NCBI GenBank assembly: GCA_007376535.1 | Contig: VMGK01000005.1 | Coordinates: forward strand, 2,085-66,084 | From: Candidatus Berkelbacteria bacterium Licking1014_7 | Lineage (GTDB): Bacteria; Patescibacteriota; UBA1384; GWA2-35-9; CG2-30-39-44 | Reading direction: 5' to 3' | Length of the DNA stretch: 64,000 nucleotides | Part shown: piece by piece, positions 1 through 46,402 of the stretch | Position numbering within the stretch: position 1 is the stretch's first letter | Layout of the letters: every line of letters begins with the position of its first letter | Program-made: the position numbers and the translations under genes | Notes under the pieces: model-generated | Database searches by the model: none | What the model was told of the DNA's origin: nothing | What the model saw: only the letters and a program-made list of their open reading frames with translations

Positions 1-2
1 TG

Positions 3-2775: not shown

Positions 2776-2801
2776 TCCTCATCCTTTCACCTAACCCAAT
2801 T

Positions 2802-2840
2802 TTACGACACGGAGTGTCGTAAATCGTATTTTCATTTTTT
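2802..2840 (+). terminator. Putative rho-independent terminator of the LamG gene
   Basis: Perfect hairpin TTACGACAC-GGA-GTGTCGTAA followed by a T-rich tract. Confidence 0.5.
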
Positions 2841-2857
2841 AACGAGGCTCCATCTCC

Positions 2858-2895
2858 TTGACCCGTTAGTAGTGTTCCGCACTACTTTACGGGTC
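2858..2895 (+). repeat. 38-bp palindromic mini-insertion (CCCGTtAGTAGTG-TTCCG-CACTACTttACGGG core)
   Basis: Near-perfect inverted repeat sitting exactly between codons of the LamG remnant. Removing it restores the reading frame. Confidence 0.5.
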
Positions 2896-2911
2896 GATGT
2901 CCGCATCTACA

Positions 2912-3205
2912 CCCTGTGAAATTTGTAAATTTTTGAAGATAAGATGAAATTTTATTATACTTATATCCTTAAAAGTATAAAAGACAATAAATTGTATACT
3001 GGTTCAACAAAAAATTTACAAGAACGATTTGAGCAACATTGTAAGGGAAAAGTTTTTTCAACTAAGCATCGCAGACCATTAGAATTGATATACTATGAAG
3101 CTTGCTTAAATGAAAATGATGCTCGTCGCAGAGAAAGAGTATTCAAATCTTACAGAGGTAAAATGTTTATAAAAAGAAGGCTCAAATCGTATTTCACAGG
3201 GTAAA
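2912..3205 (+). mobile_element. 294-bp GIY-YIG nuclease cassette bounded by 11-bp perfect inverted repeats CCCTGTGAAAT / ATTTCACAGGG
   Basis: Inverted repeats at 2912-2922 and 3191-3201. The segment length is a multiple of 3 and removing it restores the LamG remnant frame precisely. Confidence 0.55.
2944..3204 (+). CDS. GIY-YIG domain nuclease (UPF0213/YhbQ-like small stand-alone GIY-YIG protein)
   Basis: YTYILKS...KLYTGSTKNLQERFEQH...RRPLELIYYE...RRRERVFKSYRG matches the GIY-YIG motifs (GIY, YIG, Arg and Glu core residues). Confidence 0.75.
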   Translation: MKFYYTYILKSIKDNKLYTGSTKNLQERFEQHCKGKVFSTKHRRPLELIYYEACLNENDARRRERVFKSYRGKMFIKRRLKSYFTG

Positions 3206-3316
3206 ATCGCGCCCTCATCGCCGCCGAAGTCCAACAACTCTACAATTCCTACTAATCCCATTATTCTCTTAAACTTTTATACTCTTACACTTTGAAACTT
3301 TACCCTTGTATACTAT

Positions 3317-3413
3317 GAACCCATTGCAAATCTCTCCAATCTACTACAATATGCCACATTTGGCTACAAAATACTCATCGTTCGTCATCGTCCGCCTTGG
3401 CGGATGCTTCCTC
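3317..3413 (+). mobile_element. MITE copy, 5' half only (terminal repeat GAACCCATTGCAAA), abutting and truncating the four-helix-bundle gene
   Basis: 97 bp nearly identical to 21725-21821 and 24893-24988. Confidence 0.6.
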
Positions 3414-3696
3414 TTCCGTCTCAGTGATGAGCAATCTCGCCGAGGGTTTTGAGCGCGGAACGCGCGAAGATCAAATTTATTTTTACTATATCGCCAAAGC
3501 ATCAGCCGGTGAAGTTCGTTGTCAGCTTTACATCGCGTATGACCAGAATTTCATTACAAAACAAGAATTAGACGATAACCTTACTCTTTGCAAAAAAACT
3601 TCCGCCACAATTTACCGCTTCATTGAGAGTGTAAAAGTTTCAGAGTATAAGGGTTTAAAGTTCAGAAAACCGATTAGAATTTTGGAAAAATTATGA
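3397..3696 (+). CDS. Four-helix-bundle protein (23S rRNA intervening-sequence protein family), N-terminally truncated. The first codons derive from the MITE
   Basis: SNLAEGFERGTREDQIYFYYIAKASAGEVRCQLYIA fits the IVS four-helix-bundle consensus. The usual N-terminal half is missing. Confidence 0.5.
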   Translation: MADASSSVSVMSNLAEGFERGTREDQIYFYYIAKASAGEVRCQLYIAYDQNFITKQELDDNLTLCKKTSATIYRFIESVKVSEYKGLKFRKPIRILEKL

Positions 3697-3796
3697 CAAA
3701 CCCAAATTACGGCACTTAATTCCTACCGAATATCGTGATAAGATATTAAAGAAAGGTAAAAACTCTTAAACAGGAAAAGGGGAAGGAGAGATAGAT

Positions 3797-6637
3797 CTAC
3801 TTGGTCTTGAAATTGTAAATAGAACTGGTGGCGGAGTTGGCGCTGCTGTCTTGCGAAACGATCTTAAAATAATATACGGTGGCGCTATTGAGATTGGCAA
3901 GCGTCAAAGAGTGGTTAGTAAATCCAGTTGTTTCTGTGACGGTTTTGGCATTAAGCGTGGTATTAATCAGTCCGTATTGGATATAACTTTGGCTAGGTTT
4001 GTCTGTTGTAAAACTAATTATGGCGGAGTTGGCAGTGGCTGAAACCAAGATATTGGAAATTTTAGGACCACTAGTATCAGGAGATACCAAAAATTTTATT
4101 TGTTTGTAAGCGGACGCCCCATTTTTATCAAAAGCAAAAGCGGTTAAAGTATGTTCTCCGACTGATAATCCATTCACATTGTAGGCGAGAGAGTAGGGGC
4201 TTGATGTGGCTTTGCCTATTTCAATATTATCAATTGAAAACGCCACTTCCCTGATTTCAAAATGCGCAGACGCAGATGCGGAAAAAACGGTTTCGCCTGT
4301 GGTCGTAGAATTTTCAGTCGGCGCAATTATTTCCATCACCGGCAATTTGTCTAACGAATTATACATATCGTCTTTTTCAGTCGGCGGCTGGTTGTCCATT
4401 CCTCGTTCAGCCGCCCACGCCAAAACCGGTCCCTCCCAGTTGCTGTTTTGCGGTTTTTCCGAGTGAATTTCTGTGTATAATTTTTCCTCAATTACTTCTT
4501 TAGGGGTAAATTCAGTGGCTAATTTACCATTTAATTTATTGATTTTAACCCGAATATGAATGTCGTCTTTTTTATCTGGCGCCTGCCAAGAGGTAAAAAT
4601 GTCCTTGATAATTTCCGGTGAATCAGCGGTAGGAAGTTTGTTGGATAATTTGTCAACTTCTATTTCGCGAATGCCCGACGGCTGATCAAAGCCCTTATTT
4701 TCTTTAGACAGCAGAAAACTTTTCATAAAAGCATTCCAAATCGGCGCGGCCACCACTGATCCGTCCGCGCCTTTTTTCATTCCGTCATTATTAGTATTTC
4801 CCACCCAGACAGCGGTTGAAATTTGCGGGGTATAACCCACAGTCCAGGCATCGTGAAACTCTTGAGTGGTGCCTGTCTTGACTGCCACTGTCTTGCCCGG
4901 AATGCTTAAATTATTGGTAAATCCAAAGACAGCGCCGCGGGCGTGATTGTCTGATAAAATATTGTTGATTTGGTAAGCGATTTGCGGATCAAGCACTGGT
5001 TTTGTTTCAAGATTTTCTGTCTTAAATTCTTCAAGTATTTTTCCGTTGTCGTCCTCGACTTTTAGTATGCCGGTGAGGGGCGCTTTTTTTCCTCCATTGG
5101 CAAAGACGCTAAAGGCGCCTGCCATTTCAATCGGTTTGACTTCGCCGCCGCCTAACACCAGAGAAAGTCCGTATCTGTCGGGTTGGGTTAAAGTGGTAAT
5201 TCCCAAATCCGCAGCGGTTTCCAGCGCTTTTTTAACGCCGACTAACCCCAATGTTTTGACTGCGGGAATGTTCAGAGAATTAGCCAGCGCCAAGCGCATT
5301 GAGACCGGACCGCGCTTGGAGCCGTCATAATTGTTGGGTACATAACCGCCGCCAAAATCAGTCGTAAGGTCAAAAAGAGTAAAAGCTGGGTTGTATTTAT
5401 CTTTGAAAGCAGTGGCGTAGACGATGGGCTTAAAAGACGAGCCCGGTTGGCGATTAGAAGTGGTGACATTTACCTGCCCATCAATGTCATCGTTAAAATA
5501 ATCGCGCGAGCCCACCATTGCCAGCACTTGTCCAGTGCTGGGGTCAATGGCGACCAGAGCGGCATTGTTGGCGCCATAGCGGTCTAATTTTTTACTGCCG
5601 GCTTCAATTGCGTCTAACGCTTTTTTTTGCGTATCAATATCTAATGTGGTGGTGACTTTCAGCCCGCCTTCTTCAACCATTTTTTCTCCATATTTTTCAG
5701 CCAGATATTCACGAATATAAAAAACAAAATGAGGAGCGATTAATGACTCGGACAGGGGGGTAAAGGTGATTTTGGCTTGCCGGGCTTTTTCCGCTTCATC
5801 TTTGGTGATATAGCCCAATTTTGCCATTTTTTCTAAAACCAGATCTTTTCGTTTGAGCAGTTTGTCTTTGTTAGCGCCATAAGGCGAGTAAAAAGTGGGC
5901 GCTTGCGGAAGCGCGGCAAGAGTGGCTGATTCTTCAAGTGTTAGATTTTTGGCGGGCTTGCCAAAATATTTACGGGACGCGGCTTCAATCCCATAAGCGG
6001 TTGAGCCATAAGGAATTTCATTTAAGTACATTTCTAAAATTTTGTCTTTGGAGTACATCATTTCCAATTCTAAAGACAGGATGAGTTCTTTAATTTTGCG
6101 CGAATAGGTTTTTTTCGGATTCAGAAGCGCGTTTTTGACATATTGTTGGGTAATGGTGGAGCCGCCTTGGGTAAAGCGCGATTTGCCAGTTAAGTTGTAA
6201 TAAATGGCGCGAAAAACGCCGGAAAAATCTAATCCGCGATGCTGATAAAAATCTTGGTCTTCAATGCTAACCGCAGCTTTTTTAACATAGTCGGGAATTT
6301 GGTCGGACGGAATAATCATCCGTTGTTTTTCGCCAGAAATAGCGTATAAAAGTTCGCCGTTTCGGTCAAGTATTTGGGTGGACTGCGCAGATTTTAGGGT
6401 TTTAAGTTTGGAAATGGCTGGCAGATCTTTGGAATACCAGACGAAAAGAACAACAATTGTCACAAAAAATCCCAGCGCCACTTTGCCGAAAAGTTTTAAC
6501 CAGCCCCTGAATCCTAATTTTTTGAGTTTGCGCCAGATCCTGTGGGGATTTCTAAGGTGGTTGATATGGCGCTTTATTCCGTGAGAAATTCCTAATGGGT
6601 TGAAAAGTCGTTTAATAAATTTCATGATAAAATTCAT
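3797..6637 (-). CDS. mrcA: Class A penicillin-binding protein (glycosyltransferase GT51 plus transpeptidase) with a C-terminal fibronectin-III/Ig-like extension
   Basis: EDQDFYQHRGLD and GGSTITQQ (GT51); SGSSFKP, SLN and KTGTT (transpeptidase). N-terminal TM anchor. Confidence 0.9.
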   Translation of the reverse strand: MNFIMKFIKRLFNPLGISHGIKRHINHLRNPHRIWRKLKKLGFRGWLKLFGKVALGFFVTIVVLFVWYSKDLPAISKLKTLKSAQSTQILDRNGELLYAISGEKQRMIIPSDQIPDYVKKAAVSIEDQDFYQHRGLDFSGVFRAIYYNLTGKSRFTQGGSTITQQYVKNALLNPKKTYSRKIKELILSLELEMMYSKDKILEMYLNEIPYGSTAYGIEAASRKYFGKPAKNLTLEESATLAALPQAPTFYSPYGANKDKLLKRKDLVLEKMAKLGYITKDEAEKARQAKITFTPLSESLIAPHFVFYIREYLAEKYGEKMVEEGGLKVTTTLDIDTQKKALDAIEAGSKKLDRYGANNAALVAIDPSTGQVLAMVGSRDYFNDDIDGQVNVTTSNRQPGSSFKPIVYATAFKDKYNPAFTLFDLTTDFGGGYVPNNYDGSKRGPVSMRLALANSLNIPAVKTLGLVGVKKALETAADLGITTLTQPDRYGLSLVLGGGEVKPIEMAGAFSVFANGGKKAPLTGILKVEDDNGKILEEFKTENLETKPVLDPQIAYQINNILSDNHARGAVFGFTNNLSIPGKTVAVKTGTTQEFHDAWTVGYTPQISTAVWVGNTNNDGMKKGADGSVVAAPIWNAFMKSFLLSKENKGFDQPSGIREIEVDKLSNKLPTADSPEIIKDIFTSWQAPDKKDDIHIRVKINKLNGKLATEFTPKEVIEEKLYTEIHSEKPQNSNWEGPVLAWAAERGMDNQPPTEKDDMYNSLDKLPVMEIIAPTENSTTTGETVFSASASAHFEIREVAFSIDNIEIGKATSSPYSLAYNVNGLSVGEHTLTAFAFDKNGASAYKQIKFLVSPDTSGPKISNILVSATANSAIISFTTDKPSQSYIQYGLINTTLNAKTVTETTGFTNHSLTLANLNSATVYYFKIVSQDSSANSATSSIYNFKTK

Positions 6638-6760
6638 ATTAAATTAAAATTAAGAATGCAGAATGAAGAAATTAAATTATAATTAAGAAATTTTTGATTT
6701 GCCTGCCCTGCCAGAATGAAATCTACCGCGCCCGCCAAAGTGAAATCTAATTTGAGAAGA

Positions 6761-6801
6761 CCTGCCCGCCATCGCTATCGCTCAGGCGATTAGCAGGCGG
6801 G
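6761..6801 (+). repeat. REP-like nested hairpin CCTGCCCGCCATCGCTATCGCTCAGGCGATTAGCAGGCGGG
   Basis: Homologous copies at 7067-7107, 31930-31970 and, inverted, 46944-46984. Confidence 0.6.
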
Positions 6802-7169
6802 GGAATTATCACCTAATTCTGGAAGAGATTGAATGCGGGCGGGGTTATTTCAATTCTTAATTCTTCATTTTTATTTCTTATTTTGCATTTGCATTATAGC
6901 ATAAAATGGATTACAATAAAATAAAATAAAGCAATCTCAAATCTCAAATTTCAAAACATTAAAAAGATTTAAGAATATAGAATAATCCTAATTATACGAC
7001 TGACGCAAAACTACCTTTTTATATTTTCTTGGATAATCGCTAAAAGCAATCTCAAAATCCAAATCTCCCGCCCGCCATCGCTAGCGCTCAGGCGCTTAGC
7101 GGGCAGGCAAATCTCAAAGTGTAATGCAATGTCTAAAATAAAGGGGATTAAACCGCATTTTCAAATATT

Positions 7170-7356
7170 CCATATCAATTTTCAATGACACAATTTTCAG
7201 ATATTCCTGTTTGTTACATTGAAACATTGTAAATTCAATGCCTGCCCGCCATAATTGCCTGAATGGAACACGAATGAATAATTCGAGTGGAATATCAAGC
7301 AATAAAGGTGGGTAAATTGAGAATTCTAAATTGTAAATTGAATTCAAAGTTTTAAG
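7170..7356 (+). repeat. Copy 2 of the same repeat, ending 7 nt before tyrS
   Basis: See 1110-1284. Confidence 0.65.
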
Positions 7357-7362
7357 AATAAT

Positions 7363-8553
7363 ATGAGTAAATTAACAGCGAAAATTAGCGATTTATTGAC
7401 CCGCGGAGTTTCAGAAATTATTGTTAAGCGCGATTTGGAAAAGCAACTTTTATCCGGGAAAAAATTAAGAATTAAACTTGGGCTTGATTCAAATATTCCT
7501 GATTTGCATTTGGGGCACGCAGTCAATCTGAGAAAATTGCGCGCGTTTCAGGACTTGGGGCATCAAGCGATTTTGATTCTGGGCGATTATACCGCCGCGA
7601 TTGGCGATCCGTCTGGACAAGATAAAACCAGACCGGCGGTTGATGTTTGCCAGACAAAAAAAAACGCGCGGGAATTTTTGAGGCAAGCCGGCAAAATTTT
7701 GGATAAAAATAAAACCGAGGCGCATTGTAATTCCGAGTGGTTTTCTAAAATGAGTTTTTTGGATGTTTTGAATTTGGCGTCCAAAATGACAGTTAAGCAT
7801 ATTTTGAGTCATGACACATTCAGACGAAGAATTAAAAAAGACCAGCCATTTTTTATGCACGAGTTGATGTATCCTTTGATGCAGGGTTATGATAGCGTGA
7901 TGGTGGCTGCTGATGTGGAGTTGGGCGCCAGCGAGCAGAAATTTAATTTGCTTTCTGGCAGGCGGTTGCAGAGGGCATTTGGGCAAAAAGAGCAAAATAT
8001 TTTGATGATGAGGTATTTGATTGGCACAGACGGAAAAGAAAAAATGTCTAAGACACTTGGTAATTTTATCTCTTTGCGCGACAGCGCCAGCGAGATGTAC
8101 GGAAAAATAATGTCAATTCCAGATGTATTGATGCGTGAGTATTTTGAATTATGCGCTGATTTGGAAGTTGGGGAAATTGACAAGTTGATGGTTTCAGCCA
8201 AAACAGAGCCCAAAAAAGTTAAAGAACGATTGGCTGGCGAGATTGTTAAAATGTATTATAGTGAAAAAGATGTTCAATTGGCAAAGCAAGAATTTGATAA
8301 TGTTTTTGGCGCGGTTAGCGGCGCTCCCAGCAAAATTCAGGAAGTTGGTCTGGGCGCAAAAAAAATTGTCTTACTGGGCGCGTTGGTGAAAACCGGTTTG
8401 GTTTTGTCGCGCTCCGAAGCGCGCAGATTAGTCGTCCAGGGCGGGGTGAAAATTGATCAGCAAAAAGTTGATGATGTCAATTTGATAATTGATTTGTCGC
8501 GTCCGAAAATTTTGCAAGTGGGAAAAAGGAAGTTTGTTAGGATTAAAAGTTGA
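7363..8553 (+). CDS. tyrS: Tyrosyl-tRNA synthetase
   Basis: HLGH (DLHLGHAV) and KMSKT (EKMSKTLGN) class I motifs, plus a C-terminal S4 domain. Confidence 0.9.
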   Translation: MSKLTAKISDLLTRGVSEIIVKRDLEKQLLSGKKLRIKLGLDSNIPDLHLGHAVNLRKLRAFQDLGHQAILILGDYTAAIGDPSGQDKTRPAVDVCQTKKNAREFLRQAGKILDKNKTEAHCNSEWFSKMSFLDVLNLASKMTVKHILSHDTFRRRIKKDQPFFMHELMYPLMQGYDSVMVAADVELGASEQKFNLLSGRRLQRAFGQKEQNILMMRYLIGTDGKEKMSKTLGNFISLRDSASEMYGKIMSIPDVLMREYFELCADLEVGEIDKLMVSAKTEPKKVKERLAGEIVKMYYSEKDVQLAKQEFDNVFGAVSGAPSKIQEVGLGAKKIVLLGALVKTGLVLSRSEARRLVVQGGVKIDQQKVDDVNLIIDLSRPKILQVGKRKFVRIKS

Positions 8554-8849
8554 TATTTTAAAATTGGAAGTGAAATGGCAATAAACCCAAGTAAAGAATG
8601 CCGAGGGCAAAGCCCGATGATTCTTTACTTATATTTTGAGGTATAATTGATTTTCAGCACGCCCGCCCACTTGCATTCAATCTCTTACAATATCCTGTCA
8701 AATCCTAAATTATACAATGTCAAAGTCCAAAATCCAAAGACCAAATCAAATCCTAATGATTCAATGTCAAAGTCCAAATTTTTTGACATTAAGATTTTGG
8801 ATTTTGGTATTCATTTGGCATTTGGAACAATTTGGATTTTGACATTTAT

Positions 8850-8927
8850 TTGCCTGCCCCGTAAAATTTCTTAATTGCCTGCCCCGTAATCCGCCTCAGG
8901 CGGATGTGCGGGGTAATTTAATTTCTT
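8850..8927 (+). repeat. 78-bp palindrome-containing repeat TTGCCTGCCCCGTAAAATTTCTTAATTGCCTGCCCCGTAATCCGCC..GGCGG...CGGGGTAATTTAATTTCTT
   Basis: Second copy at 33737-33815 (upstream of pilB). This copy is upstream of argS. Confidence 0.6.
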
Positions 8928-9104
8928 CTCCGTCAGCTGACGGACTTCATCCTTAATTCTTATTTAATTTTGTAATAAAAAAAATATGCCAAGCAGTGGT
9001 GGGTCAAAAACCCCGGATTTTAATCCATGCGTAGTTGATTGTATGTCTTTGTTTGTTGTAGGCATATTAATCATTGTAGGGATATTAAAAATAATTTTAT
9101 AGAG

Positions 9105-10703
9105 ATGGATTTAGTTAAAAAAGTTATAGATGGAGCAGTTTTAAGATTGTACAAGTTGCGATCGCAAAAATATTCCTTGGATTATAAAGAGCAATTTGGC
9201 GATTTGTCTACTAATCTTGCGTTTGTTTTGTCGTCGCAAATTAAAGATGCGCCACAAAAAATTGCGATCGCAATTAAACAAAAAATTGAAAAAGAAAAAT
9301 TTTTTGAAAAAGTTGAAATCGCTAACGCTGGATTTTTAAATTTCACTTTATCAGGCGACACGATAATGAAAATGCTTGAAAGCGAAAATTTTAATCATTC
9401 AAAAAAAAGCGATCGCAAAAAAATACAAATTGAATTTATTAGCGCTAATCCAACCGGACCGCTTACTCTTGGCAACGCGCGCAATGCTTTTACTGGCGAC
9501 GCGATCGCAAAAATTTTACGTTGGTCAGGACAAGATGTTCAGACCGAATATTATGTCAATGATATGGGGAATCAGATTGAGACGCTGGGGGAATCAGTAA
9601 TAAATTCAAAACTCAAAACGCAAATGTCAAAACCACCCCTAAAAAATCAAAAATTTTATGTTGGAGAATATATTGAAGAAATAGGCAAAAGGATTAACGG
9701 GAAAAATGTGCAACAAATAGGGGAGCGGGGAGCAAAAATTATTTTACAGGATTATATAAAACCGCTGATTAAAAAATTAAAAATACATTTTGATCGTTGG
9801 CAAAGTGAAAAAGCATTACATCAAAGGTACGACATTGAACAAGAGGTTGAAAAATTGCGATCGCAAAAATTTATCCAAGAAAAAGAAGGCGCGCTTTGGT
9901 TTTTGACTAAAAAATTTGGCGACGATAAAGATCGGGTGCTCAAGAAAAAAAATGGGCAGTGGACATATTTGGCGTCTGATCTTTTGTATTTGATTGACAG
10001 AAAAAAGAGGGGATTTGATAAAATTATCATTCTTTTAGGCGCTGATCATTCTGGTTATATCAAACGAATTTTGGCTTTGGGGCAGTCGTTGGGTTTTAAA
10101 AAAGATCAAATAAAAATTTTAATTTGTCAGTTGGCGCGGATTAAAAAAGGCGAGAAAAGTTTGAGAATGAGCAAACGCGCTGGCAATGTGATATACTTAG
10201 ACGAGTTAGTTGGTAAAGTCGGGCTGGATGCGAGCCGATATTTTTTCTTGGAAAAAAATCCTAACACTCATCTTGATTTTGACGGGCAAAAAGCGCTGAA
10301 AAGGGATTTGACCAATCCGGTTTATTATATTCAATATGGATATGTTAGAGCGCAAAGTATTTTGCGCAAATGTCAAATTTCAAATATCCCTGCCCCGAAG
10401 CAAGCGGGGAAATATCAAACAAATTTCAAATCCCAAATTCTAAATTCTCAAGAAAAGCGGTTGGCTTTGAAAATTTTAGCCTTACGCCCTGCCCTGTCCG
10501 ACATATCCCAGACTTTAGAGATTTACCGGTTGCCTCATTTGGCGCTGGATTTGACGCGCGCGTTTAGTAATTTTTACGAAAAAGAAAGAGTGATTGATGG
10601 CGAAACAGTAAATCCGCTGAATTTGTTGCTTACTCAAAAATTTTATACATCTATTGATTTGCTTTTAGACATGATGGGAATTTCCAAACCGGAAAAAATG
10701 TAA
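9105..10703 (+). CDS. argS: Arginyl-tRNA synthetase
   Basis: SANPTGPLTLGNARNAFTGDAIAKIL (HIGH region), MSKRAGN, C-terminal anticodon-binding region. Start placed at MDLVKK (9105) rather than the ORF-track 9039. Confidence 0.9.
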   Translation: MDLVKKVIDGAVLRLYKLRSQKYSLDYKEQFGDLSTNLAFVLSSQIKDAPQKIAIAIKQKIEKEKFFEKVEIANAGFLNFTLSGDTIMKMLESENFNHSKKSDRKKIQIEFISANPTGPLTLGNARNAFTGDAIAKILRWSGQDVQTEYYVNDMGNQIETLGESVINSKLKTQMSKPPLKNQKFYVGEYIEEIGKRINGKNVQQIGERGAKIILQDYIKPLIKKLKIHFDRWQSEKALHQRYDIEQEVEKLRSQKFIQEKEGALWFLTKKFGDDKDRVLKKKNGQWTYLASDLLYLIDRKKRGFDKIIILLGADHSGYIKRILALGQSLGFKKDQIKILICQLARIKKGEKSLRMSKRAGNVIYLDELVGKVGLDASRYFFLEKNPNTHLDFDGQKALKRDLTNPVYYIQYGYVRAQSILRKCQISNIPAPKQAGKYQTNFKSQILNSQEKRLALKILALRPALSDISQTLEIYRLPHLALDLTRAFSNFYEKERVIDGETVNPLNLLLTQKFYTSIDLLLDMMGISKPEKM

Positions 10704-10707
10704 GGAT

Positions 10708-10811
10708 CACGACTGACACAAAAACTTAAATGTTAGTCCTTTTATATTTTCTTGGATAATCGCTTCTCAGCACGCTCGTCGCCCCAGCACGGCTCCTCGC
10801 TCGTCCTCGCC
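10708..10811 (+). repeat. Copy of the ACGACTGAC..TTCTTGGATAATCGCTTCTCAGCACGCTCGTCGCC... repeat
   Basis: About 90% identical to 46098-46195. Supplies the predicted start of the TIGR00725-like gene. Confidence 0.6.
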
Positions 10812-11393
10812 TCGCTCGGTCGCCGCGGCGAAAAAAACAAGGATTATCTAAAGTATAAAATTGGGGTTTCAGGATCTGCCAAAGACAATTGCGCGCCCGG
10901 TGCGTTTAAGAAAGCGTATGAAGTTGGTCGTGAAGTGGCGCGCCAAGGCGCGATATTGGTCAACGGCGCGACAACTGGTATTCCGCAAAAAGCGGCCGAG
11001 GGCGCCAAACATGCCAACGGATTGGTGATTGGGATTTCGCCCGCGGTTTCTAAAAAAGAGCATTTGAGAAAATATAAACTACCGATTGATTATTGTGATT
11101 TGATTATGTATACCGGTATGGATTACGCGGGTAGAAATTTTTTGTTTATTCGCTCAACTGACGCCACAATTTATATTTGCGGACGGATCGGCACCTTAAA
11201 CGAATTTACCATTGCTTTTGAGGATAATAAACCAATTGGGATTTTAACCAATACTGGCGGCACAACCGAAGAAATTGCGGATTTGCTACGTGTGGCAAAG
11301 CGCGGAAAAGGCAAAATTGTCTGGGACGACGAGCCAAAACGATTAGTGGAAAAAGTGATAGAGATGATTAGGGAGAACGAGAATCATCATTAA
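10752..11393 (+). CDS. TIGR00725/LOG-like Rossmann-fold protein (SLOG superfamily)
   Basis: IGVSGSA, VNGATTGIP and ICGRIGTLNEF motifs. The annotated N-terminus (MDNRFSARSSPQHGSS...) is encoded by an interspersed repeat, so the true start is uncertain. Confidence 0.5.
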   Translation: MDNRFSARSSPQHGSSLVLASLGRRGEKNKDYLKYKIGVSGSAKDNCAPGAFKKAYEVGREVARQGAILVNGATTGIPQKAAEGAKHANGLVIGISPAVSKKEHLRKYKLPIDYCDLIMYTGMDYAGRNFLFIRSTDATIYICGRIGTLNEFTIAFEDNKPIGILTNTGGTTEEIADLLRVAKRGKGKIVWDDEPKRLVEKVIEMIRENENHH

Positions 11394-11474
11394 TAATCTC
11401 AAATCTCAAAATTGCTCCGCCATCTGGCGGAAGCTTTCGGGGAGATTTACTTTTTGCTTTTTAATATAGATTTT

Positions 11475-12827
11475 ATGACCATAAAATTCCTTGGCGCTAA
11501 TCGGGAAGTGACCGGGTCCTGTTATTTATTAGAAAACAAACAAAAATCAAAAATTCTAATTGATTGCGGATTTTTTCAAGGCGGAGATAAAAGTCAAGCG
11601 CGCAATCGGCAGAAATTTAATTTTAAGGTACAAGAGATTGATGCGGTTTGCATCACCCACGCGCATCTTGATCATATTGGCAGGTTGCCAAAATTGGTAA
11701 AAGATGGCTATCACAAAATGATTTACGCTATTGCGCCGACGATTGATTTGTCTCGGTTGGTGCTCGAAGACACGGTTAAAATCGCGCAAGAAGAATTTCG
11801 CCATACCGGCGAGCATAAGATTTTTGACGAATATGATGTGGTGCGAGTAATGGGATTATTTTCTGCGGCGGAATATAATAGGTTGTTTGAGCCAGCGCCT
11901 GGTTTTAAGGTTCGGTTTAGAAATGCCGGGCATATTTTGGGCTCGGCGTTTTTAGAAATTGAAGCCGATAATAAAAAGTATATTTTTTCCGGCGATCTGG
12001 GAAATCCTGATATGCCATTGCTTCTGAGCGCGAGCGCGCCGGCGCCAGCAGATGTTTTGGTGCTTGAGTCAACTTATGGATCTGTGGTGCATGAAAGAGG
12101 GGTTTCTCGTACCGTAGAATTGCAAGAAGCGATTGAGCAAACCATAAAAAATCGCGGCGTCTTGATGATTCCCGCTTTTGCTTTGGAGCGGACGCAAGAA
12201 ATACTTTTAGCCATCAATGGCCTAGTGGAAAACAAAAAAATTCCTCACGTGCCGGTTTTTTTGGATAGTCCGATGGCGATTTCTGCGACTGAAATATATA
12301 AACGATACGCAAAAACCCATTTTAGTCGAAAATCATTACAGGATTTGTTGGTTGATAGGGATTTATTTGATTTTGAAGGTTTTAAGTATTGCGATACAGT
12401 CGAGCAGTCAAAACAGATTAATCACACCCCGTCACCCAAAGTGATTATTGCTGGTTCGGGAATGATGGAGGGGGGCAGGATTTTGCATCACGCCAAAAGG
12501 TATTTATCCGATCCACGGTCAACTTTGCTTTTTGTTGGCTATCAGGTAGCCGGCACGCTCGGCAGACAACTTTTTGAAAAAGCCCGTCGTGTTTTTATCC
12601 ATGGCGAGCGGATAGCGGTGCACAGCCGAATTAAGTCCATCGGGGGATTGAGCGCGCACGCGGACAGTATTGATTTGGTAAAATTTGCTGAAAAAACGAA
12701 GACAAGTTTGCGAAAAATTTACCTGACGCACGGGGAGTTAGAACGGGCGCGAGGTCTCAGAAAAACTTTGTTAAAATCAGTTAAAGCAGAAATTGACATT
12801 CCAAAAATGGGAGAGATGGGGGAATAA
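11475..12827 (+). CDS. β-CASP family MBL-fold ribonuclease (RNase J / CPSF-like)
   Basis: HAHLDHIG (HxHxDH) plus downstream β-CASP and RNA-metabolising MBL C-terminal motifs. Start at MTIKFLGA. Confidence 0.8.
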   Translation: MTIKFLGANREVTGSCYLLENKQKSKILIDCGFFQGGDKSQARNRQKFNFKVQEIDAVCITHAHLDHIGRLPKLVKDGYHKMIYAIAPTIDLSRLVLEDTVKIAQEEFRHTGEHKIFDEYDVVRVMGLFSAAEYNRLFEPAPGFKVRFRNAGHILGSAFLEIEADNKKYIFSGDLGNPDMPLLLSASAPAPADVLVLESTYGSVVHERGVSRTVELQEAIEQTIKNRGVLMIPAFALERTQEILLAINGLVENKKIPHVPVFLDSPMAISATEIYKRYAKTHFSRKSLQDLLVDRDLFDFEGFKYCDTVEQSKQINHTPSPKVIIAGSGMMEGGRILHHAKRYLSDPRSTLLFVGYQVAGTLGRQLFEKARRVFIHGERIAVHSRIKSIGGLSAHADSIDLVKFAEKTKTSLRKIYLTHGELERARGLRKTLLKSVKAEIDIPKMGEMGE

Positions 12828-13111
12828 TCGCAAAATTCACATAAGATACAAGAAACAAGATACAAGATACAAACAATATTCAAAATTCAAAATCAAAACA
12901 ATTCAAAATCCAAAAATATTTTTGACTTAAGATGATAGAATATAGATTTAAGAATGTCCGCCATCTGGCGGATTAGAAGTTAGAATGCGGGGGGTTTTAT
13001 TCTTTATTCTACATTCTTGATTCATTCATAAATCTTGAATCTTACTTCTTGAATCTTTTTGAAAATTGTGTCATTGAAAATTCGTAATTAGAAATTTTAT
13101 TTCATCATTCC

Positions 13112-15382
13112 TCACAAATCCACCTCATAGCCATTTCCATCGGCTAAAATCCAGACCTTTTTACCTTTGTGATCCACTTGGAAACAAGTGGGTTTTTTGA
13201 TTGCGGGAGGAAAAAGATATTGTTTTAAGTAATTGCCGTCTTTGTCAAATTCTAAAACGCGCGCTTTGGTTTGGTCTAAAATATAAAGTGAAGAAATGGA
13301 TTCAGCTGTGTAGATATCAATCGGATTGGATAAATCATCAAACGTTTTGGGTAGATTTTTAAGTCGAAAATCAGTGGCCGCGCCCTTGCTAATTTTCAGG
13401 ACTTTATTTGGTAAAAGCGCGTAAATAGAATTGTCAATCGTAAGCGCGACTGCTTTTGACATCTGGTTTGCCAGCGCCGAGCCAGTGTAGGAGACCGGGT
13501 CTTGATAATTATTTTCGTTTTTGTTAAATTTCCAGATTTTCGCATCTTTTGCTGAAAACGCGTAAATATTGTCGGCAAAAATATCAAAATCAATCAGCGC
13601 GCCAGTTTTATTTTGAGGGAGATTAAGAGCGATTAGCCGTTCGTCCTCAGCATTGAAATTGTAAATTTCTCCGGCCTGAGTTAAAAGGTAAAAATGGCGA
13701 TCGTCAAATTTGATAAGGTCTTGCCATTTGCCAGCAATGGATGGAATTTCTTGCTTTTTACCAGATAAGATATTGATTTTTATAATTTTTTCATTTTCCA
13801 AAAGAAAGGCAGAGCCCTGAAAGGTGAACATTTTTTCACCTTTTAAGTCCGTGGCAAAGGGCGTCAAATTGAAATATCTTTTTGTCTGAGTGATTGAGTC
13901 GGCTTGATTGCTGGCTTGGCTGATAATTTTTTCCGCTTCGGTTTTGTACTCAGAGTTTTGAATTTTTTGCGCCAAATTTATCGCGTTTTCAAAAAGTTCA
14001 GTTGCAGTTTGCTTATCAGATAAAATTAAAGCGGATTTTCCTTCATCTAATTTTTTTTGCGCTTGGGATAGTGTCTCGGACTTTTGTTGGCTGGCAAGTT
14101 TTTGCGCTTGTTTTTTTCTTTGCACGCTGATAGAAACGATTAAAACGAAAATCAGTGTTACGGCGCATATCACAATCATTAACGGTCGTTTTTTGCTGGA
14201 TGAGTAATTTTTTCTAAAAAAATACCAAGCATTGTCGATTTTGATAATTACTTTTTTAATTGTTTGGTTGGCGGTTCTGACAATTTTTTTTGCGCTTGAT
14301 GTATGCTCATTTCTGTAATCATTGATGGTATAAATCGAGCGACCGATAAATGAATCGTTTTTGGTTGACGCGATTTCTGCCCCGTCCTTTTTAATTTTAA
14401 CTAAATTATCTCCAATAAATTTTTTGGCGCCGCCGCCGGTTTTTTGAATGATGGGTTTGGCTTTTTGAAAATATTCGCGCGATAATTGCCGAGAACGGTC
14501 TGACGCGGTTTTTAGAAATTTTTTACTTTGGGGAAGGTAGCGCGTTTTTGTCTTATTGATGCTGGCTTTGAGGTACTGATGGGTGTTTTGTCCGGTTTTC
14601 TTAACCCAGGGCAAAATATATTTTTTAGAAAATTTTATTGCTTGGCTCAACGCTGAGGCGGATTGTTTATCAACCGTCAGTTGAATATCTTGCACGGCTT
14701 GGTTTTCTACCGGGATTTCGACATTAAGAGTAAAAAAAGCGATCGCTTTGTCGCGCGTTTTTTTGAAGAAAGTAAAAATGTTTTCGCCTGCTTCAATAAA
14801 GTTTTGATTTGCGAAAAATTGCTTGACGATTTGCGAGGATAAGTGATTAAGCGCTTGAGAGTTGGCAAAAATTAATAAGTCGTTTGCATCAATGGAACCA
14901 GATGTGATATTAGAAAAGGTTTTAAGCGGATGGGGTCCGATAATTTGAATTTTTGAGTCAACAATTTCTGAAATTTTGTCATTGCGAATCAGCCAGGTCT
15001 TGATTTTTCCCGAGGTAGCAAGGTGTACTTGGTTTTGGATAGATAAGCAAAATATTGCGTTGAGGTTGCCGATCCAGCTGGTTTCGCCGTTTTGGCTGAT
15101 ATGCGCCAATGTTTCGTTAACTGACTTGAGCGCTTGTTCAAAATTCTGCAAATCAGAGGTGGATTCGCCAGAATAATAGGCGCGTTTTAGGGTATTAAGT
15201 ATGGTCTGTCCGATTTGGCGGTGGATTGAAGTGGCTTGCAAAATTTCTAACAAAACATAGATTTTGCCCATTTCCTGATGAATTTTGTCAGGCGATTCTA
15301 AAATTTGAGCCGTGATAAAACGCCCGGGAATTTGTCCAGAGTGTAAAATTTTGAGCGAGTTGAGGGTGAGGTTTTTGAGCAT
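13112..15382 (-). CDS. Large hypothetical membrane-anchored protein (single mid-protein TM, coiled coil, C-terminal β-propeller-like repeats)
   Basis: TM segment RPLMIVICAVTLIFVLIVSISV. Repetitive β-strand-rich C-terminus. No confident family. Confidence 0.45.
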   Translation of the reverse strand: MLKNLTLNSLKILHSGQIPGRFITAQILESPDKIHQEMGKIYVLLEILQATSIHRQIGQTILNTLKRAYYSGESTSDLQNFEQALKSVNETLAHISQNGETSWIGNLNAIFCLSIQNQVHLATSGKIKTWLIRNDKISEIVDSKIQIIGPHPLKTFSNITSGSIDANDLLIFANSQALNHLSSQIVKQFFANQNFIEAGENIFTFFKKTRDKAIAFFTLNVEIPVENQAVQDIQLTVDKQSASALSQAIKFSKKYILPWVKKTGQNTHQYLKASINKTKTRYLPQSKKFLKTASDRSRQLSREYFQKAKPIIQKTGGGAKKFIGDNLVKIKKDGAEIASTKNDSFIGRSIYTINDYRNEHTSSAKKIVRTANQTIKKVIIKIDNAWYFFRKNYSSSKKRPLMIVICAVTLIFVLIVSISVQRKKQAQKLASQQKSETLSQAQKKLDEGKSALILSDKQTATELFENAINLAQKIQNSEYKTEAEKIISQASNQADSITQTKRYFNLTPFATDLKGEKMFTFQGSAFLLENEKIIKINILSGKKQEIPSIAGKWQDLIKFDDRHFYLLTQAGEIYNFNAEDERLIALNLPQNKTGALIDFDIFADNIYAFSAKDAKIWKFNKNENNYQDPVSYTGSALANQMSKAVALTIDNSIYALLPNKVLKISKGAATDFRLKNLPKTFDDLSNPIDIYTAESISSLYILDQTKARVLEFDKDGNYLKQYLFPPAIKKPTCFQVDHKGKKVWILADGNGYEVDL

Positions 15383-15478
15383 AATAATCAAATCAAAAGT
15401 TATAAGTCCCCGAAGACAATGTGCTATCACTTGGCTTCAATCCTACGGATTGTAAAATTTTTGTAGCATTCATAGTTT

Positions 15479-16066
15479 TTATTTCTCCCAAATTATATGG
15501 CAGTTGATATTGTGTTTCTCATAATCTTTTAATACATCGGCGCAAAAATCCATCAACTCCTTATTTTTCTCGCTTTTGGCCAATTCATATAAACGAATAA
15601 ACATCTTTTTACCAGTTTCGGTCTGTTTGAGGTGTTTTTTAATAAAGTTGTGTTGAGCACATAAGGTCTGTCCATTTTCAACTATTGCTTTACCGCCTTC
15701 ATATCTTGATTTAATGTGATCAACTTGTAACTCAACTCCATCCTCTCTGCCTCGTCCACACAGGACACATTTATAGTCATCTCGTTTTAAGATAAATTCT
15801 TTTTGTTCAGGTGTAAAATCCTCTAAAATTCGTTGATTGACCATTTCGGGATCATATCTATATATTCCCTTATTTACTTTAACCAAAAAACCAACTTCGT
15901 GAAGATTTCTAATTGATCGCCAGGTATCTCTCGGTTTTTTATTATAAAGCCGCATGTACTTTGCTTCAACCCAATCAACAACTGGACCGTGTGGCATATC
16001 CTCTTTTGGATGTGCCTTGAAGTATTCAATAAGCAGGTCTCGTATTGATTTGTTTTTCTTTTTCAT
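15479..16066 (-). CDS. HNH endonuclease (probable restriction endonuclease partner of the adjacent methyltransferase)
   Basis: CVLCGRG...ELQVDHIKSRYEGG...NGQTLCAQHN (HNH with zinc-finger cysteines). Start at MKKKNK. Confidence 0.7.
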   Translation of the reverse strand: MKKKNKSIRDLLIEYFKAHPKEDMPHGPVVDWVEAKYMRLYNKKPRDTWRSIRNLHEVGFLVKVNKGIYRYDPEMVNQRILEDFTPEQKEFILKRDDYKCVLCGRGREDGVELQVDHIKSRYEGGKAIVENGQTLCAQHNFIKKHLKQTETGKKMFIRLYELAKSEKNKELMDFCADVLKDYEKHNINCHIIWEK

Positions 16067-16074
16067 AGTTATTA

Positions 16075-16914
16075 TTAAGTTAATAAATTTGGTTGATCTA
16101 TTTTTGCTTCTACCCGTAATCGCCTGATTGCTAAATCGCAATATTCTTTGTCAATATCAACACCAATTCCTTTTCTGTTGTGCAAATATGAAGCAATAAG
16201 CGTTGTTCCGCTACCCAAAAATGGGTCCAAAACTGTATCACCAATAAAACTAAATAATTTTATACATCGTCTCGGCAATTCAACCGGAAATGGCGCAGGA
16301 TGTCCGCCCGCCCCCTTTTTACTTTGGCCGGAGAATGTCCAAACACCATTTGTCCAATCCATAAATTCCTGCTTTGTAATGTCATTTTTCCTACTCCCGC
16401 CAGTTTTTTTCCAGCTGTCTTTATATAAAACTAAAATCAATTCAACAGGGGCAATGACATAAGGAGCTGAGGCAGACATATATGAACCCCAAGCGGTGCG
16501 GCGAGAAATATTTCCCTCGTTCCAGATAATCGTTGAGTGATATTTCCAGCCAATATCTTTTGCGATTTTTGTAATATCAGCGCCGACTGATTTTTGGCCA
16601 CCTTTATTTTTATCAAGAGGAATATTTAGCAAAAATCGTCCTTCCTTTTTTGCTAAATCAAAACATTTCTTAATCCATTTTTTGGTAAATTCTAAATAGT
16701 CTTCGTAAGTCAAATTGTCAGCGTGGGAATTGTAATGAATGTCAACATTATAAGGCGGTGAAGTAATAATTAGATCAACTGAATTTCCGGGTATGGCTGT
16801 AATCTTCAAAATATCGGCTTTGAAAATAGAAATTCCGTCTTTTTCAAAATATGGTTTTTGAGATTTCATCTCATCAATATTGCTAACTTGTTTTTCCGCC
16901 ATTATATTTTGCAT
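16075..16914 (-). CDS. β-class N4-cytosine/N6-adenine DNA methyltransferase
   Basis: Motif IV IITSPPYN near the N-terminus and motif I DPFLGSGTT near the C-terminus (N6_N4_Mtase order). Confidence 0.85.
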   Translation of the reverse strand: MQNIMAEKQVSNIDEMKSQKPYFEKDGISIFKADILKITAIPGNSVDLIITSPPYNVDIHYNSHADNLTYEDYLEFTKKWIKKCFDLAKKEGRFLLNIPLDKNKGGQKSVGADITKIAKDIGWKYHSTIIWNEGNISRRTAWGSYMSASAPYVIAPVELILVLYKDSWKKTGGSRKNDITKQEFMDWTNGVWTFSGQSKKGAGGHPAPFPVELPRRCIKLFSFIGDTVLDPFLGSGTTLIASYLHNRKGIGVDIDKEYCDLAIRRLRVEAKIDQPNLLT

Positions 16915-17204
16915 AAAATTTTTGTGATAAGCACAGCAACAGGGTTTATATCAATAGCAATTGATGGTCGTCCCATTACTTTTGATTCAACAAGCGTTGT
17001 GCCGCAACCACCAAATGGATCAACAATAGAATCACCCTCTCGCGTATATTTTTCCGCTAAGCGAGAGACAATTTGCGGAATAAACTTTGCGGGGTAGCGA
17101 TGATAGCCGTGCGTGATATACGTCGTGTCCTTCCTTGTTTTATCGGAAAAAGACCACGAATAATCAATTTTTGTCTTTGCGAGTAATGTTGTTATTTGTC
17201 TCAT
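16902..17204 (-). pseudogene. C-terminal fragment of an N6_N4 DNA methyltransferase (AdoMet-binding half only)
   Basis: HRYPAKFIPQIV...DSIVDPFGGCGTT...IAIDINP corresponds to the last ~100 aa of the N6_N4_Mtase domain. No DPPY motif. Confidence 0.5.
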
Positions 17205-17300
17205 AGCTTTTTTTTGTTAATTCCTCAATTTTCAAAATGTCTGAATTGGTCGCCTTTCGACTTGGCTCAAGGCGACTCTGAGATTGTCGTCTGGTCGTAA

Positions 17301-17313
17301 TTACTGAACGAAG
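17301..17313 (+). repeat. Left arm of a 13-bp inverted repeat TTACTGAACGAAG (partner at 18708-18720, next to tRNA-Pro)
   Basis: Exact 13-mer with extended 17/19 match. The two arms bracket the MTase fragment and the Bro-N gene. Confidence 0.5.
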
Positions 17314-17378
17314 CTCGAACCCCTTTCCTTTTTGCCCGCCCTCGCTTTCCGATTCCGATTTTACCGCCGCCGGAATCC

Positions 17379-17723
17379 TTATATCACTTGTAATTCCATC
17401 TGTAAATTTTTTCTCTCCGCTTTCCCCGTCTTAAACAAATTCGCTTTTTCATCCAATTCTTTTATTCTTCTTTCGGAAATTTTGACATACTTTTCGTTAG
17501 TATCAATTCCAATATTTTTTTCCCCTAACTTTTTTGCTGCCACAGCAGTTGTTCCGCTACCCATAAACGGATCAAAAACTAAATCACCCTTATTGCTTGC
17601 GGAAAGTAAAACTTGCTGAATTAACTTGAGCGGTTTTTGCGTTGGATGTGCTTTTATTCCATTTTCATCTCTTAATCTTTCTTGCCCTCTATACACACCA
17701 AAAACCCAATCAGTATCTTTCAT
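17379..17723 (-). CDS. Stand-alone C-terminal half of an N6_N4 DNA methyltransferase (HPTQKP...DPFMGSGTT)
   Basis: AHPTQKPLKLIQQVLLSASNKGDLVFDPFMGSGTTAVAAKKLGEKNIGIDTNEKY. The catalytic DPPY half is absent. 4-nt overlap with the upstream Bro-N gene. Confidence 0.5.
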   Translation of the reverse strand: MKDTDWVFGVYRGQERLRDENGIKAHPTQKPLKLIQQVLLSASNKGDLVFDPFMGSGTTAVAAKKLGEKNIGIDTNEKYVKISERRIKELDEKANLFKTGKAERKNLQMELQVI

Positions 17724-18562
17724 TTGTTATTCAAGTTTTTTCTTCTCTTTGCTTTCAGTAAATAATTTTTATTCGTCGGAACTTTTTTACCGCTTTTTCT
17801 TTCCAAATCTTTTCGTGCTTTGCCGGCTACACTTCCGCCTTCTTGCGCAACAATTTTATTTTCATTAAAACCTTGGGCATTTTTATTTTGAGCAATTTCC
17901 GTTGTTGACGCCTCTCCGAGCATTGAAAAAATTAACTCCAAATCATTCATATGATCTCGTAAATTCTCTCGCTTGAGTCCTTTGAATTTCTGATATTCGC
18001 TCGGCGTCATTCCAAAAGTTGCTTCGGAAATTTCAGCGGTTAAAATCGCGTATTCTTGGCCTTCCCTTACATCTCGTTTTTTCCATTCATTAGTCAGTGT
18101 TTCGCGAACTTCAATACCTCGCATCCTTTTTTCTATCCATGTATCAGAATATCCTTTGGCTTTATAAAGAGCTCGGGTTCTCTTAGTGGCTAACTCGGGG
18201 TCTTCAATTTCCTGTATTCTTTCATAGCCAACTCGAGCCAACCAACGTTTAAACGGTTCAGCTTTTGGCGACGGAATTGATTGAATAATGCGGAAAATGC
18301 CTTCCGTATTAGCGCTGGTTATCTTTCTTTTTTTGCCATCTTTAGCCACCATCTCAAGGAGGGGACAATTTGTCCCCCAGTAGACATTTAGCTCTTTGTC
18401 TCTCTTTCTCATCTTTTTTATATAATCTCTAACATCTACTGTATCGGTGAGCGCCCCAACTACATCCGCAACCGAAAACCACCATTCGTTTTTATGAATG
18501 ATTTTGCGAATTTCCTTTTTTTGGAAAATGGCAATTTTTGTAGTCGTAATTTTTCTGTTCAT
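17720..18562 (-). CDS. Bro-N domain protein (DinD / phage antirepressor-like)
   Basis: EWWFSVADVVGAL Bro-N signature. The C-terminal part resembles DNA-damage-inducible protein D. Confidence 0.55.
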   Translation of the reverse strand: MNRKITTTKIAIFQKKEIRKIIHKNEWWFSVADVVGALTDTVDVRDYIKKMRKRDKELNVYWGTNCPLLEMVAKDGKKRKITSANTEGIFRIIQSIPSPKAEPFKRWLARVGYERIQEIEDPELATKRTRALYKAKGYSDTWIEKRMRGIEVRETLTNEWKKRDVREGQEYAILTAEISEATFGMTPSEYQKFKGLKRENLRDHMNDLELIFSMLGEASTTEIAQNKNAQGFNENKIVAQEGGSVAGKARKDLERKSGKKVPTNKNYLLKAKRRKNLNNK

Positions 18563-18707
18563 AAAATTAAAATTTTAGTTTTTCTAACTCTAATCTCTTG
18601 TTGTAATAATTTATAATCTCATCATAATCTTTTACAACAAAACGATCTTCCAAAATTGAATAGGGTTCTCGCTCAAAATAGGTTCCCTCCAAAGGCGGGC
18701 AGGCGAT

Positions 18708-18720: not shown

Positions 18721-18722
18721 AT

Positions 18723-46097: not shown

Positions 46098-46195
46098 TAC
46101 GACTTACGCAAAATTCGGCTTTATGTTATATTTTCTTGGATAATCGCTTCTCAGCACGCTCGTCGCCCCAGCGTGGCTCCTCGCTCGTCCTCGCC
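46098..46195 (+). repeat. Interspersed repeat family (ACGACTtACgCAAAA ... TTCTTGGATAATCGCTTCTCAGCACGCTCGTCGCCCCAGC..GGCTCCTCGCTCGTCCTCGCC) in the rplJ-rplL spacer
   Basis: Copies at 10708-10811 and, truncated, at 6996-7041. Confidence 0.6.
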
Positions 46196-46402
46196 TATAG
46201 ATTTTCCGCCAGAGGCGGATCTGCCTTTGGCATGACACTTTGACGGGCAGGCATTTTGATTTATCATTTTTGATATTTGATTTATTATTGTGTTATTAGA
46301 AAATATTATACGAAATTACGAAAATTAAAATAATTTTAACTTTGGGTTGTCATTTTGCATTTTGAGATTTGCATTTTGCATTTGACGACCGAAGGGAGGA
46401 AC

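Follow-up and report, generated by a model that had tools for sequence, protein, structure and literature searches.

A MITE-like intergenic repeat in a Berkelbacteria genome and the probable assembly origin of the N-terminus that it gives to a LOG-like protein

In the window, i.e., the whole 64-kb stretch of DNA analysed here, the predicted gene of a conserved LOG-like protein begins inside an interspersed repeat, which also lies between rplJ and rplL. We propose, with a probability of about 0.6, that this repeat is a MITE-like element and that an artefact of idba_ud scaffolding at one of its copies gave the LOG-like gene a false N-terminus. The window encodes an RplJ protein with 100% identity to its counterpart in the NCBI MAG 'Candidatus Berkelbacteria bacterium Licking1014_7', a set of scaffolds produced by idba_ud (PMC5581439). 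We compared the window with ENA assembly ERZ27284379, made of MEGAHIT-style k139 contigs, which we found by exact protein look-ups and which probably comes from the same sample. Over more than 50 kb, the two assemblies are 100.000% identical with zero substitutions, and their only differences are four gaps in the window, two of which fall in copies of the repeat.

Copies and anatomy of the repeat

The first-pass annotation had reported the same sequence of about 100 bp at three places of the window, and our searches bear this out. An exact 22-mer, TATATTTTCTTGGATAATCGCT, occurs on the + strand at 7020, 10743, and 46127 (chance expectation in the window pattern search, 0), and a GC-rich continuation, CAGCACGCTCGTCGCCCCAGC, was found by window search at 10768 and 46152. 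In the alignment of the copies, a conserved block (ACGACTKACRCAAA) is followed by a variable AT-rich linker and then by TTATATTTTCTTGGATAATCGCT; two copies, w1 and w2, carry the GC-rich part after TTATATTTTCTTGGATAATCGCT, and the third, w3, ends after ...AATCGCT. Copy w1 (10709..10831, + strand) corresponds to the left 123 nt of a full-length element that we call F1, so that homology extends to 10831, beyond the earlier end at 10811. It consists of an outer terminal repeat (ACGACTGACACA, 10709-10720, + strand), an AT-rich linker, an inner inverted-repeat arm (ATATTTTC-TT-GGATAAT-C-GCTTC, 10744-10768, + strand), and a C-rich core running up to the palindrome TCGCCGCGGCGA. Copy w2 (46099..46196, + strand), inside the rplJ-rplL spacer, is the left 98 nt of full-length element F2 and is 97% identical to w1 across a 71-nt core.

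Copy w3 (6996..7041, + strand), located 320 nt upstream of the TyrRS gene, has ACGACTGACGCA as its left terminal repeat, contains the first part of the inner repeat, and is cut off after GGATAATCGCT. It had been described as truncated, and it is so in both assemblies: it lies inside MEGAHIT contig L011 at 100% identity, and because this independent assembly shows the identical truncation, the shortness of w3 is not an assembly effect. A profile search extended the census of the repeat to a fourth copy, w4 (8629..8670, + strand; TTATATTTTGAGGTATAATTGATTTTCAGCACGCCCGCCCAC; nhmmer E=4e-4), which is partial and diverged, lies between the TyrRS and ArgRS genes, and contains a perfect TATAAT. Within the window, the terminal-repeat pattern occurs at the element copies only. 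All window copies (w1-w4) lack the right half of the element; for w1 and w2 this is very probably an artefact of the window assembly, since the MEGAHIT contigs carry complete elements there. In all, we count six copies in about 90 kb of this population, four in the window and two (F3 and F4) in MEGAHIT contig L005, three of them complete and three partial.

The complete element measures about 200-215 nt, with individual lengths of 198-213 nt. Its outer terminal inverted repeats are matched at 12/12 positions in F2 (ACGACTTACGCA/TGCGTAAGTCGT) and at 16/16 in F3 (TAACACGACTTAGGCA/TGCCTAAGTCGTGTTA), and between these two copies a C-G pair is replaced by G-C at the same position of both arms (alignment columns 9/277); the right terminal repeat of F1 is degenerate. 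The AT-rich linkers differ in length between copies. The inner inverted repeat, in which ATATTTTC..GGATAAT.GCTTC pairs with GAAGTC.ATTATCC..GAAAAT, is invariant. Between its arms lies an asymmetric core, C-rich on the + strand, with a GC content of 65-75% against 39% for the window. The left 52 nt of this core hold 26 C for 12 G, have no self-complementarity, and are 93-97% conserved between copies. They are followed, at a fixed position, by a hairpin whose sequence is wholly different in each copy: GGTCGCCGCGGCGACC in F1, CTTTGATGCTTGC-TTC-GCAAGATCAAAG in F2, and, in F3, a nested palindrome of larger size. Close to its right end, F3 holds another nested palindromic insert, about 190 nt long. 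The F3 nested palindrome GGGACTGTCGTCGAAT was searched in the window and not found there.

The folding of F2 is far better than that of shuffled sequences (z=-5.6, the same value on either strand), and that of F1, whose end is decayed, is no better than shuffled (z=+0.4). Across the three sequences compared, a single compensatory pair, located in the outer stem, is all the covariation there is; the middle stems do not vary, and the alignment has an unfavourable covariation term (+5.3). The element is non-coding, because the frame opened by its TTG ends after 22, 23, or 51 codons in F1, F2, and F3, and in different frames. We considered a small protein encoded from this TTG and rejected it, as neither frame nor length is conserved between copies.

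All six copies lie in the sense orientation of the gene downstream (TyrRS, ArgRS, LOG, rplL, a class II aminoacyl-tRNA synthetase, and likewise for F4), at 10 to about 440 nt from its start. From the positions at which MEGAHIT contigs end, further copies can be deduced that match F1 and F2 exactly for 138 nt or more, and this suggests that copying was recent. The element is absent from the orthologous spacers of relatives at about 70% DNA identity (ArgRS-LOG spacers of 169 and 96 nt, rplJ-rplL spacer of 56 nt), which are too distant to show an empty site. In a genome contig collection, the 20-mer ATATTTTCTTGGATAATCGC gave four matches in unrelated phyla, which we judge to be chance; in a metagenome contig collection, TATTTTCTTGGATAATCGCT gave one match, with similarity limited to the 20-mer. 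Exact-pattern scans of a viral contig collection returned no match, and full-length F2 compared with phages and plasmids (blastn, distant setting) returned nothing. As none of these searches gave anything related, the family is not traced beyond this population.

Nature of the element

The best-supported reading of these sequences is that of a lineage-specific, recently active, non-autonomous MITE-like element. It rests on the terminal repeats, the size, the non-coding nature, the multiple near-identical copies, the truncated derivatives, and the nested palindromes. Three of the features by which MITEs are recognised are present: terminal inverted repeats, a length below 600 bp without coding capacity, and multiple dispersed copies. 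Its spread is most likely that of a mobile element of this non-autonomous kind, and its transcription together with the neighbouring genes is probable. With ACACGAC.../...GTCGTGT as its ends, F3 has a TA at either flank, and F1 and F2 have no matching flanks, so that no target-site duplication is consistent across the three complete copies; nor is an autonomous partner visible in the 90 kb or so covered. These two points speak against the MITE reading, as do the small number of copies (three complete and three partial) and the degenerate right terminal repeat of F1.

A functional RNA would also account for the strict orientation bias and for the hairpins exchanged at one fixed place. The element could then be chiefly a transcribed cis-acting unit and not a selfish repeat, either a portable promoter or 5' leader, or a structured C-rich RNA module that acts on the flanking mRNAs (on their termination, processing, or stability), for instance as a Rho-loading site; such a role would leave mobility possible. 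We hold this reading to be unlikely, though several observations speak for it: the sense orientation of 6/6 copies, the conservation and strand asymmetry of the left core, the replacement of one unrelated hairpin by another at the same position in F1, F2, and F3, the compensatory pair of the outer stem, and -10-like sequences (GATAAT/TATATT, and the TATAAT of w4). The repeat had indeed been called promoter-like in part. However, our consensus scan for sigma-70 sites (-35/-10, 16-18 nt spacing) on the + strand of 7020-7041, 10743-10764, and 46127-46148 found only -10-like hexamers, and called no -35/-10 pair in any copy, so that the support for a promoter stops at these hexamers. Moreover, the -10-like box follows the conserved upstream block at anything from 9 to 18 nt, and the distance to the downstream start varies as widely as given above. 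Folding is equal on both strands and at shuffled level in F1, the covariation term is unfavourable, and relatives lack the element. Nor do RNA families match: at gathering thresholds, Rfam 15 (T-box, ribozymes, and 6S included) recovers from the window only tRNAs and the L10 leader, and a search of the full-length copies (L005 5900-10100, E<=10) gave nothing relevant. CUGUGGAUGG...CGAAG and the aminoacyl-tRNA synthetase neighbours made us consider a hammerhead or a T-box; the core motifs of both are absent and Rfam is silent.

A bolder version joins both ideas and seems to us quite doubtful. The element would be an undescribed, orientation-locked mobile RNA/promoter cassette of CPR bacteria, which spreads like a MITE and is kept for its function in cis; its -10-like box, its unstructured C-rich tract, and its nested stems would act on the downstream gene through promotion, Rho loading, or processing. 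If true, this would explain why the element is tolerated inside the rplJ-rplL operon and beside three aminoacyl-tRNA synthetase genes.

Comparison with known systems

Bacterial MITEs such as the Correia/NEMIS elements of Neisseria are non-coding units of about 100-250 nt with terminal inverted repeats, dispersed between genes, and accompanied by truncated copies. The Berkelbacteria element resembles them in size, in being non-coding, in its terminal inverted repeats, in having dispersed as well as truncated copies between genes, in the near-identity of copies, which suggests recent mobility, and in its position adjoining or inside transcription units. It differs from them in having no sequence similarity, no consistent target duplication (TA or other), and no cognate transposase or IS that we could find, and also by its inner inverted repeat, its asymmetric C-rich core, its single orientation, and its CPR host.

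With the ERIC/IRU, BOX, RUP, and REP/BIME families, it shares the organisation in imperfect modular palindromes located in transcribed intergenic regions, also within operons, and the nesting of other small palindromes, to which the two nested inserts of F3 may be compared. These families, however, belong to other taxa and have different sequences, and ERIC copies are found in either orientation. The REP unit is far shorter and is tied to RAYT genes, whereas the Berkelbacteria unit is about 200 nt long with an asymmetric core. We rejected an assignment to the REP/REPIN-RAYT systems (inverted doublets of 20-40 nt plus RAYT) on account of this unit length and because no IS200/IS605-like (RAYT) gene is present among the Pfam calls of the compared contigs.

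Whatever its closest counterpart, the presence in a small-genome groundwater Berkelbacteria of recently copied MITE-like elements, together with several other intergenic repeat families, is at odds with the picture of streamlined CPR genomes, as is the widening by repeats of a normally tight rplJ-rplL spacer from 56 to about 606 nt (see below).

Four gaps at repeats

The spans at 100.000% identity measure 3413, 7419, 10562, 11023, 10727, 10653, and 12281 bp, some of them overlapping. They align L016 2138-5550 with window 1-3413, L011 284-7702 with window 3413-10831, L005 10006-20567 with window 10832-21393, L018 177-11199 with window 24989-36011, L010 1-10727 with window 35470-46196, and L012 (from 231) and L017 with window 46197-64000. 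Four gaps interrupt this identity, the length lost varying from 105 to 215 bp. At 10831|10832, where the window reads GGCGA|AAAAAACAAGG, 133 bp are missing, i.e., the right half of the element, an AT-rich spacer of 55 nt, an AAGGAG, and the ATGCC that opens the LOG-like gene; past the equivalent of 10831, L011 continues with CCACCGTGCC...GAAGTCAAT. At 46196|46197, which reads CTCGCCT|ATAGATT, the missing 198 bp comprise the central hairpin, the inner and terminal repeats of the right side (the latter TGCGTAAGTCGT), and some 80 nt of flank. At 3413|3414, the window lacks 215 bp that contain the start and 52 initial codons of a gene of the 23S rRNA intervening-sequence protein family (PF05635), which is intact in L011 (146 aa), so that ORF 3397-3696 would be a false truncation of it. 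Finally, 105 bp between a repeat and the next gene are missing at 24988|24989. Hence, the LOG-like gene and the PF05635 gene, both intact in the MEGAHIT assembly, lose their 5' ends through two of the four gaps.

We regard it as highly probable, from the comparison of the two assemblies, that these four gaps are assembly artefacts, and the truncation of w1 and w2, like the N-terminus MDNRFSARSS of the LOG-like ORF, very probably reflects local assembly errors. All four left breakpoints are located within a repeat. The two gaps outside the element fall in another repeat (3316-3413 = 24891-24988), which forms the 98-103 nt of upstream and 5' region common to three paralogues (3311, 21719, and 24886); there, the two copies of the window share an exact match of 98 nt, and each of them breaks off where this match ends. 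When a unitig runs from unique sequence into a repeat, it stops k-1 bases into the shared stretch. The MEGAHIT contigs end exactly 40 nt past the window junctions in three cases (L011, 7742 vs 7702; L010, 10767 vs 10727; L016, 5590 vs 5550), and this offset (138 vs 98 nt) points to contig ends at k=139 in one assembly and at k of about 100, the top k of idba_ud, in the other. Because a constant offset at three loci tracks the k-mer sizes of the assemblers, a biological deletion is disfavoured.

The error would thus proceed as follows. A de Bruijn contig would stop about 98 nt into each near-identical repeat, and the scaffolder would abut the next contig without the intervening 105-215 bp. At 10831|10832, the LOG-like gene would thereby lose its ribosome-binding site and its ATG, and the ORF would then extend back, by chance in frame, to a TTG within the element. 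Two observations speak against this account: the right-hand gap ends do not lie at repeat boundaries, a search for an exact repeat there having found none, and the length lost varies. The different left flank that L005 gives to LOG (see below) counts against it too. A repeat-boundary explanation of the right-hand gap ends was dropped; both their position and the variable loss presumably come from the idba_ud scaffolder trimming sequence by a mis-estimated negative distance. Local errors are reported to be prominent in IDBA-UD assemblies (Chen et al. 2020, PMC7111523), and the cases described there resemble ours in showing an unsupported consensus at repeat joins, a CPR genome, and wrong gene models; ours differ in being deduced from a comparison of two assemblies and from k-dependent contig ends, instead of from read support.

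Alternatively, the differences of 133 bp and 198 bp could be real deletions in a co-existing strain, hairpin-rich elements being prone to deletion, and the LOG-like gene of that strain, left without its ribosome-binding site and ATG, would be a pseudogene or would be re-initiated from the TTG of the element. We give little credence to this explanation. It would account for the fact that both versions are clean, with no Ns, for the position of the right-hand gap ends off repeat boundaries, and for the read support that a de Bruijn assembler normally requires for a junction; a TTG start without a ribosome-binding site is also possible, given that so few genes have one (see below). On the other side, four gaps would have arisen against zero substitutions in more than 50 kb, all with their left breakpoints in repeats and two of them exactly 98 nt into an exact match, and the three MEGAHIT ends would fall exactly 40 nt past the junctions, although k-mer sizes are irrelevant to biology. 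Moreover, we found no microhomology at the gap junctions, and errors of this kind are documented for IDBA-UD (PMC7111523).

With the assembly explanation, 64 kb of a public CPR MAG would contain four silent scaffold joins at repeats, each deleting 105-215 bp, as a result of which one conserved gene appears with a false N-terminal extension and another with its 5' end falsely truncated. This would make gene models located beside repeats in MAGs of the idba_ud era untrustworthy without read support.

The start of the LOG-like gene

ORF 10752-11393 begins inside the repeat. The codon at 10752, which had been taken for the only in-frame ATG of the gene, is in fact a TTG, and its frame is open only because the element core is GC-rich. 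Upstream of the conserved domain, we found no other canonical in-frame start in the window ORF. The predicted protein matches PF18306 (SLOG cluster 4; E=3.8e-38) over residues 34-196, and TIGR00725 from residue 35 with 96.7 bits; 'TIGR00725-like' is the proper wording, because this score is under the cut-off of 106.9. As both profiles begin at 34-35, the first 33 residues of the ORF fall outside the protein family. They correspond to a very probably spurious N-terminal extension of 33 codons from the TTG (10752..10850, + strand), of which codons 1-27 are read from the element. The body of the gene (SLOG cluster 4/TIGR00725-like) occupies 10832..11393 on the + strand, from the third base of codon 2 to the stop, and equals L005 10006-10567.

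The protein encoded on ENA contig k139_474142 (L005), P0001, is 188 aa long, 100% identical to the ORF body, and begins MPKNKDYLKYKIGVSGSA (MPKNKDYLKYK), with which the real LOG-like gene would start. Distant orthologues begin with MNKNNRNYLK..., VVPKKDYLK..., MVKVNKEYLK..., or MKYKI..., and none of the LOG-like orthologues compared shares MDNRFSARSS. The suspicion, raised from the window alone, that this N-terminus is not native is therefore upheld by alignment to orthologues as well as by the profile boundaries, and a repeat-encoded N-terminus on this conserved enzyme is, judging from these alignments, very probably not real. As to an alternative start, the window offers none ahead of the domain, and the intact locus has its own: upstream of the ATG of P0001, L005 reads TATAAGGAGAAAAAAATG, with an AAGGAG ribosome-binding site, and farther upstream a longer version of the repeat, past ...GCCGCGGCGA, which continues CCACCGTGCCCGCTCGGCTGTGGATGGCTTCGAAGTCAATTATCCGGCGAAAATTGTTAAAAGTACC.... 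The idea that the repeat was inserted so as to supply the start of the gene is not supported, as the whole element lies upstream of AAGGAG and ATG in the intact locus.

GGAG or GAGG occurs within 20 nt upstream of the start in 7 of the 49 genes called on L005, L010, L011, L012, and L017, i.e., window genes, which indicates that Shine-Dalgarno sites are little used in this genome; the LOG-like gene and rplL belong to the minority that have one.

The order ArgRS-LOG-beta-CASP is conserved in contigs L006, L007, and L008. By joining L011, anchored in ArgRS, and L005, anchored in LOG, we reconstructed an ArgRS-LOG spacer of 256 nt, in which the complete F1 begins 5 nt past the ArgRS stop and ends 55 nt ahead of the LOG ATG. 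The last 130 nt of L011 occur identically in L005. L005 itself puts another left flank, that of copy F4, before the same core leading to LOG; hence, either the MEGAHIT join in L005 or the idba scaffold is a cross-over inside the repeat, and MEGAHIT may have crossed copies. Gene order, the idba paired-end join of the same contigs, and the identical overlap favour the arrangement in which F1 precedes LOG. In L005, the region upstream of F4 (8518-9750, about 1.2 kb, outside the window) holds small ORFs and GC-rich palindromes.

That the element was inserted in frame into the LOG-like gene and is translated with it, in the manner of the Rickettsia palindromic elements, is hardly credible: the window has a similar appearance, with an ORF open from the element into the gene, but missing sequence would produce this, the intact element ending 55 nt upstream of the ATG, the orthologues having no extension, and the TTG frame not being conserved between copies.

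The rplJ-rplL spacer

In the window, rplJ ends at 45994 and its spacer to rplL covers 408 nt (45995-46402), the start of rplL being most plausibly the ATG at 46403, which is preceded by GGAGG. The nearest relatives, L013 and L014 (55% RplJ identity), have the same rplJ-rplL-tgt order with a spacer of 56 nt. Thus, the reported inflation to about 400 bp is real, but the repeat accounts for only about 100 of the 408 bases. MEGAHIT contigs L010 and L012 overlap by 72 nt, each extending from its unique flank 138 nt into the element; because this overlap restores the missing 198 bp, the true spacer would be 606 nt, with a complete F2 of 213 nt.

The L10 leader (RF00557; 46.6 bits) is intact upstream of rplJ, at 45287-45428, and the autoregulation of the operon is presumably retained, to judge from this leader sequence, despite some 600 nt to rplL. 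A direct repeat, GCCAGAGGCKGATCYGCCTTTGGC, at 46006-46030 and 46207-46231, brackets the element in this spacer. A module TCCGCCG..TTCAATCT..GCAG...CTGCAAATAGATTTTCC is common to this genome and to a relative (L012 185-245; L006 4020-4125), and its left part is missing from the window at the 46196 join.

Other repeats and features of the window

The coding density of the window is about 82%, and intra-window repeats cover about 19% of intergenic vs 3% of coding bases. Many spacers hold AT-rich, microsatellite-like runs of the AAATCTCAAATCTCAAA type, and some other repeat families of the window are also present in relatives. A GC-rich hairpin family, CCTGCCCGCCATCGCTATCGCTCAGGCGATTAGCAGGCGGG, occurs at 6742-6805, 7048-7111, 31911-31974, and 46929-47020 (-), and in L006 at 4024-4135; unlike the element described above, it is also found in a relative (about 70% DNA identity), in the spacer between ArgRS and LOG, which suggests an older or conserved intergenic module.

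At 15431-17400 (L005 15249-16897), an N6_N4 DNA methyltransferase seems to be spread over three consecutive ORFs, beside HNH and Bro-N genes; the cause would be either the decay of a restriction-modification or mobile region or more problems of assembly. Lastly, a direct repeat of 116 nt (1152-1267 and 7218-7333, 97% identical) is located directly upstream of two unrelated + strand genes, that of a Laminin_G_3 protein at 1339 and that of TyrRS at 7363, and may represent a shared promoter or leader module.
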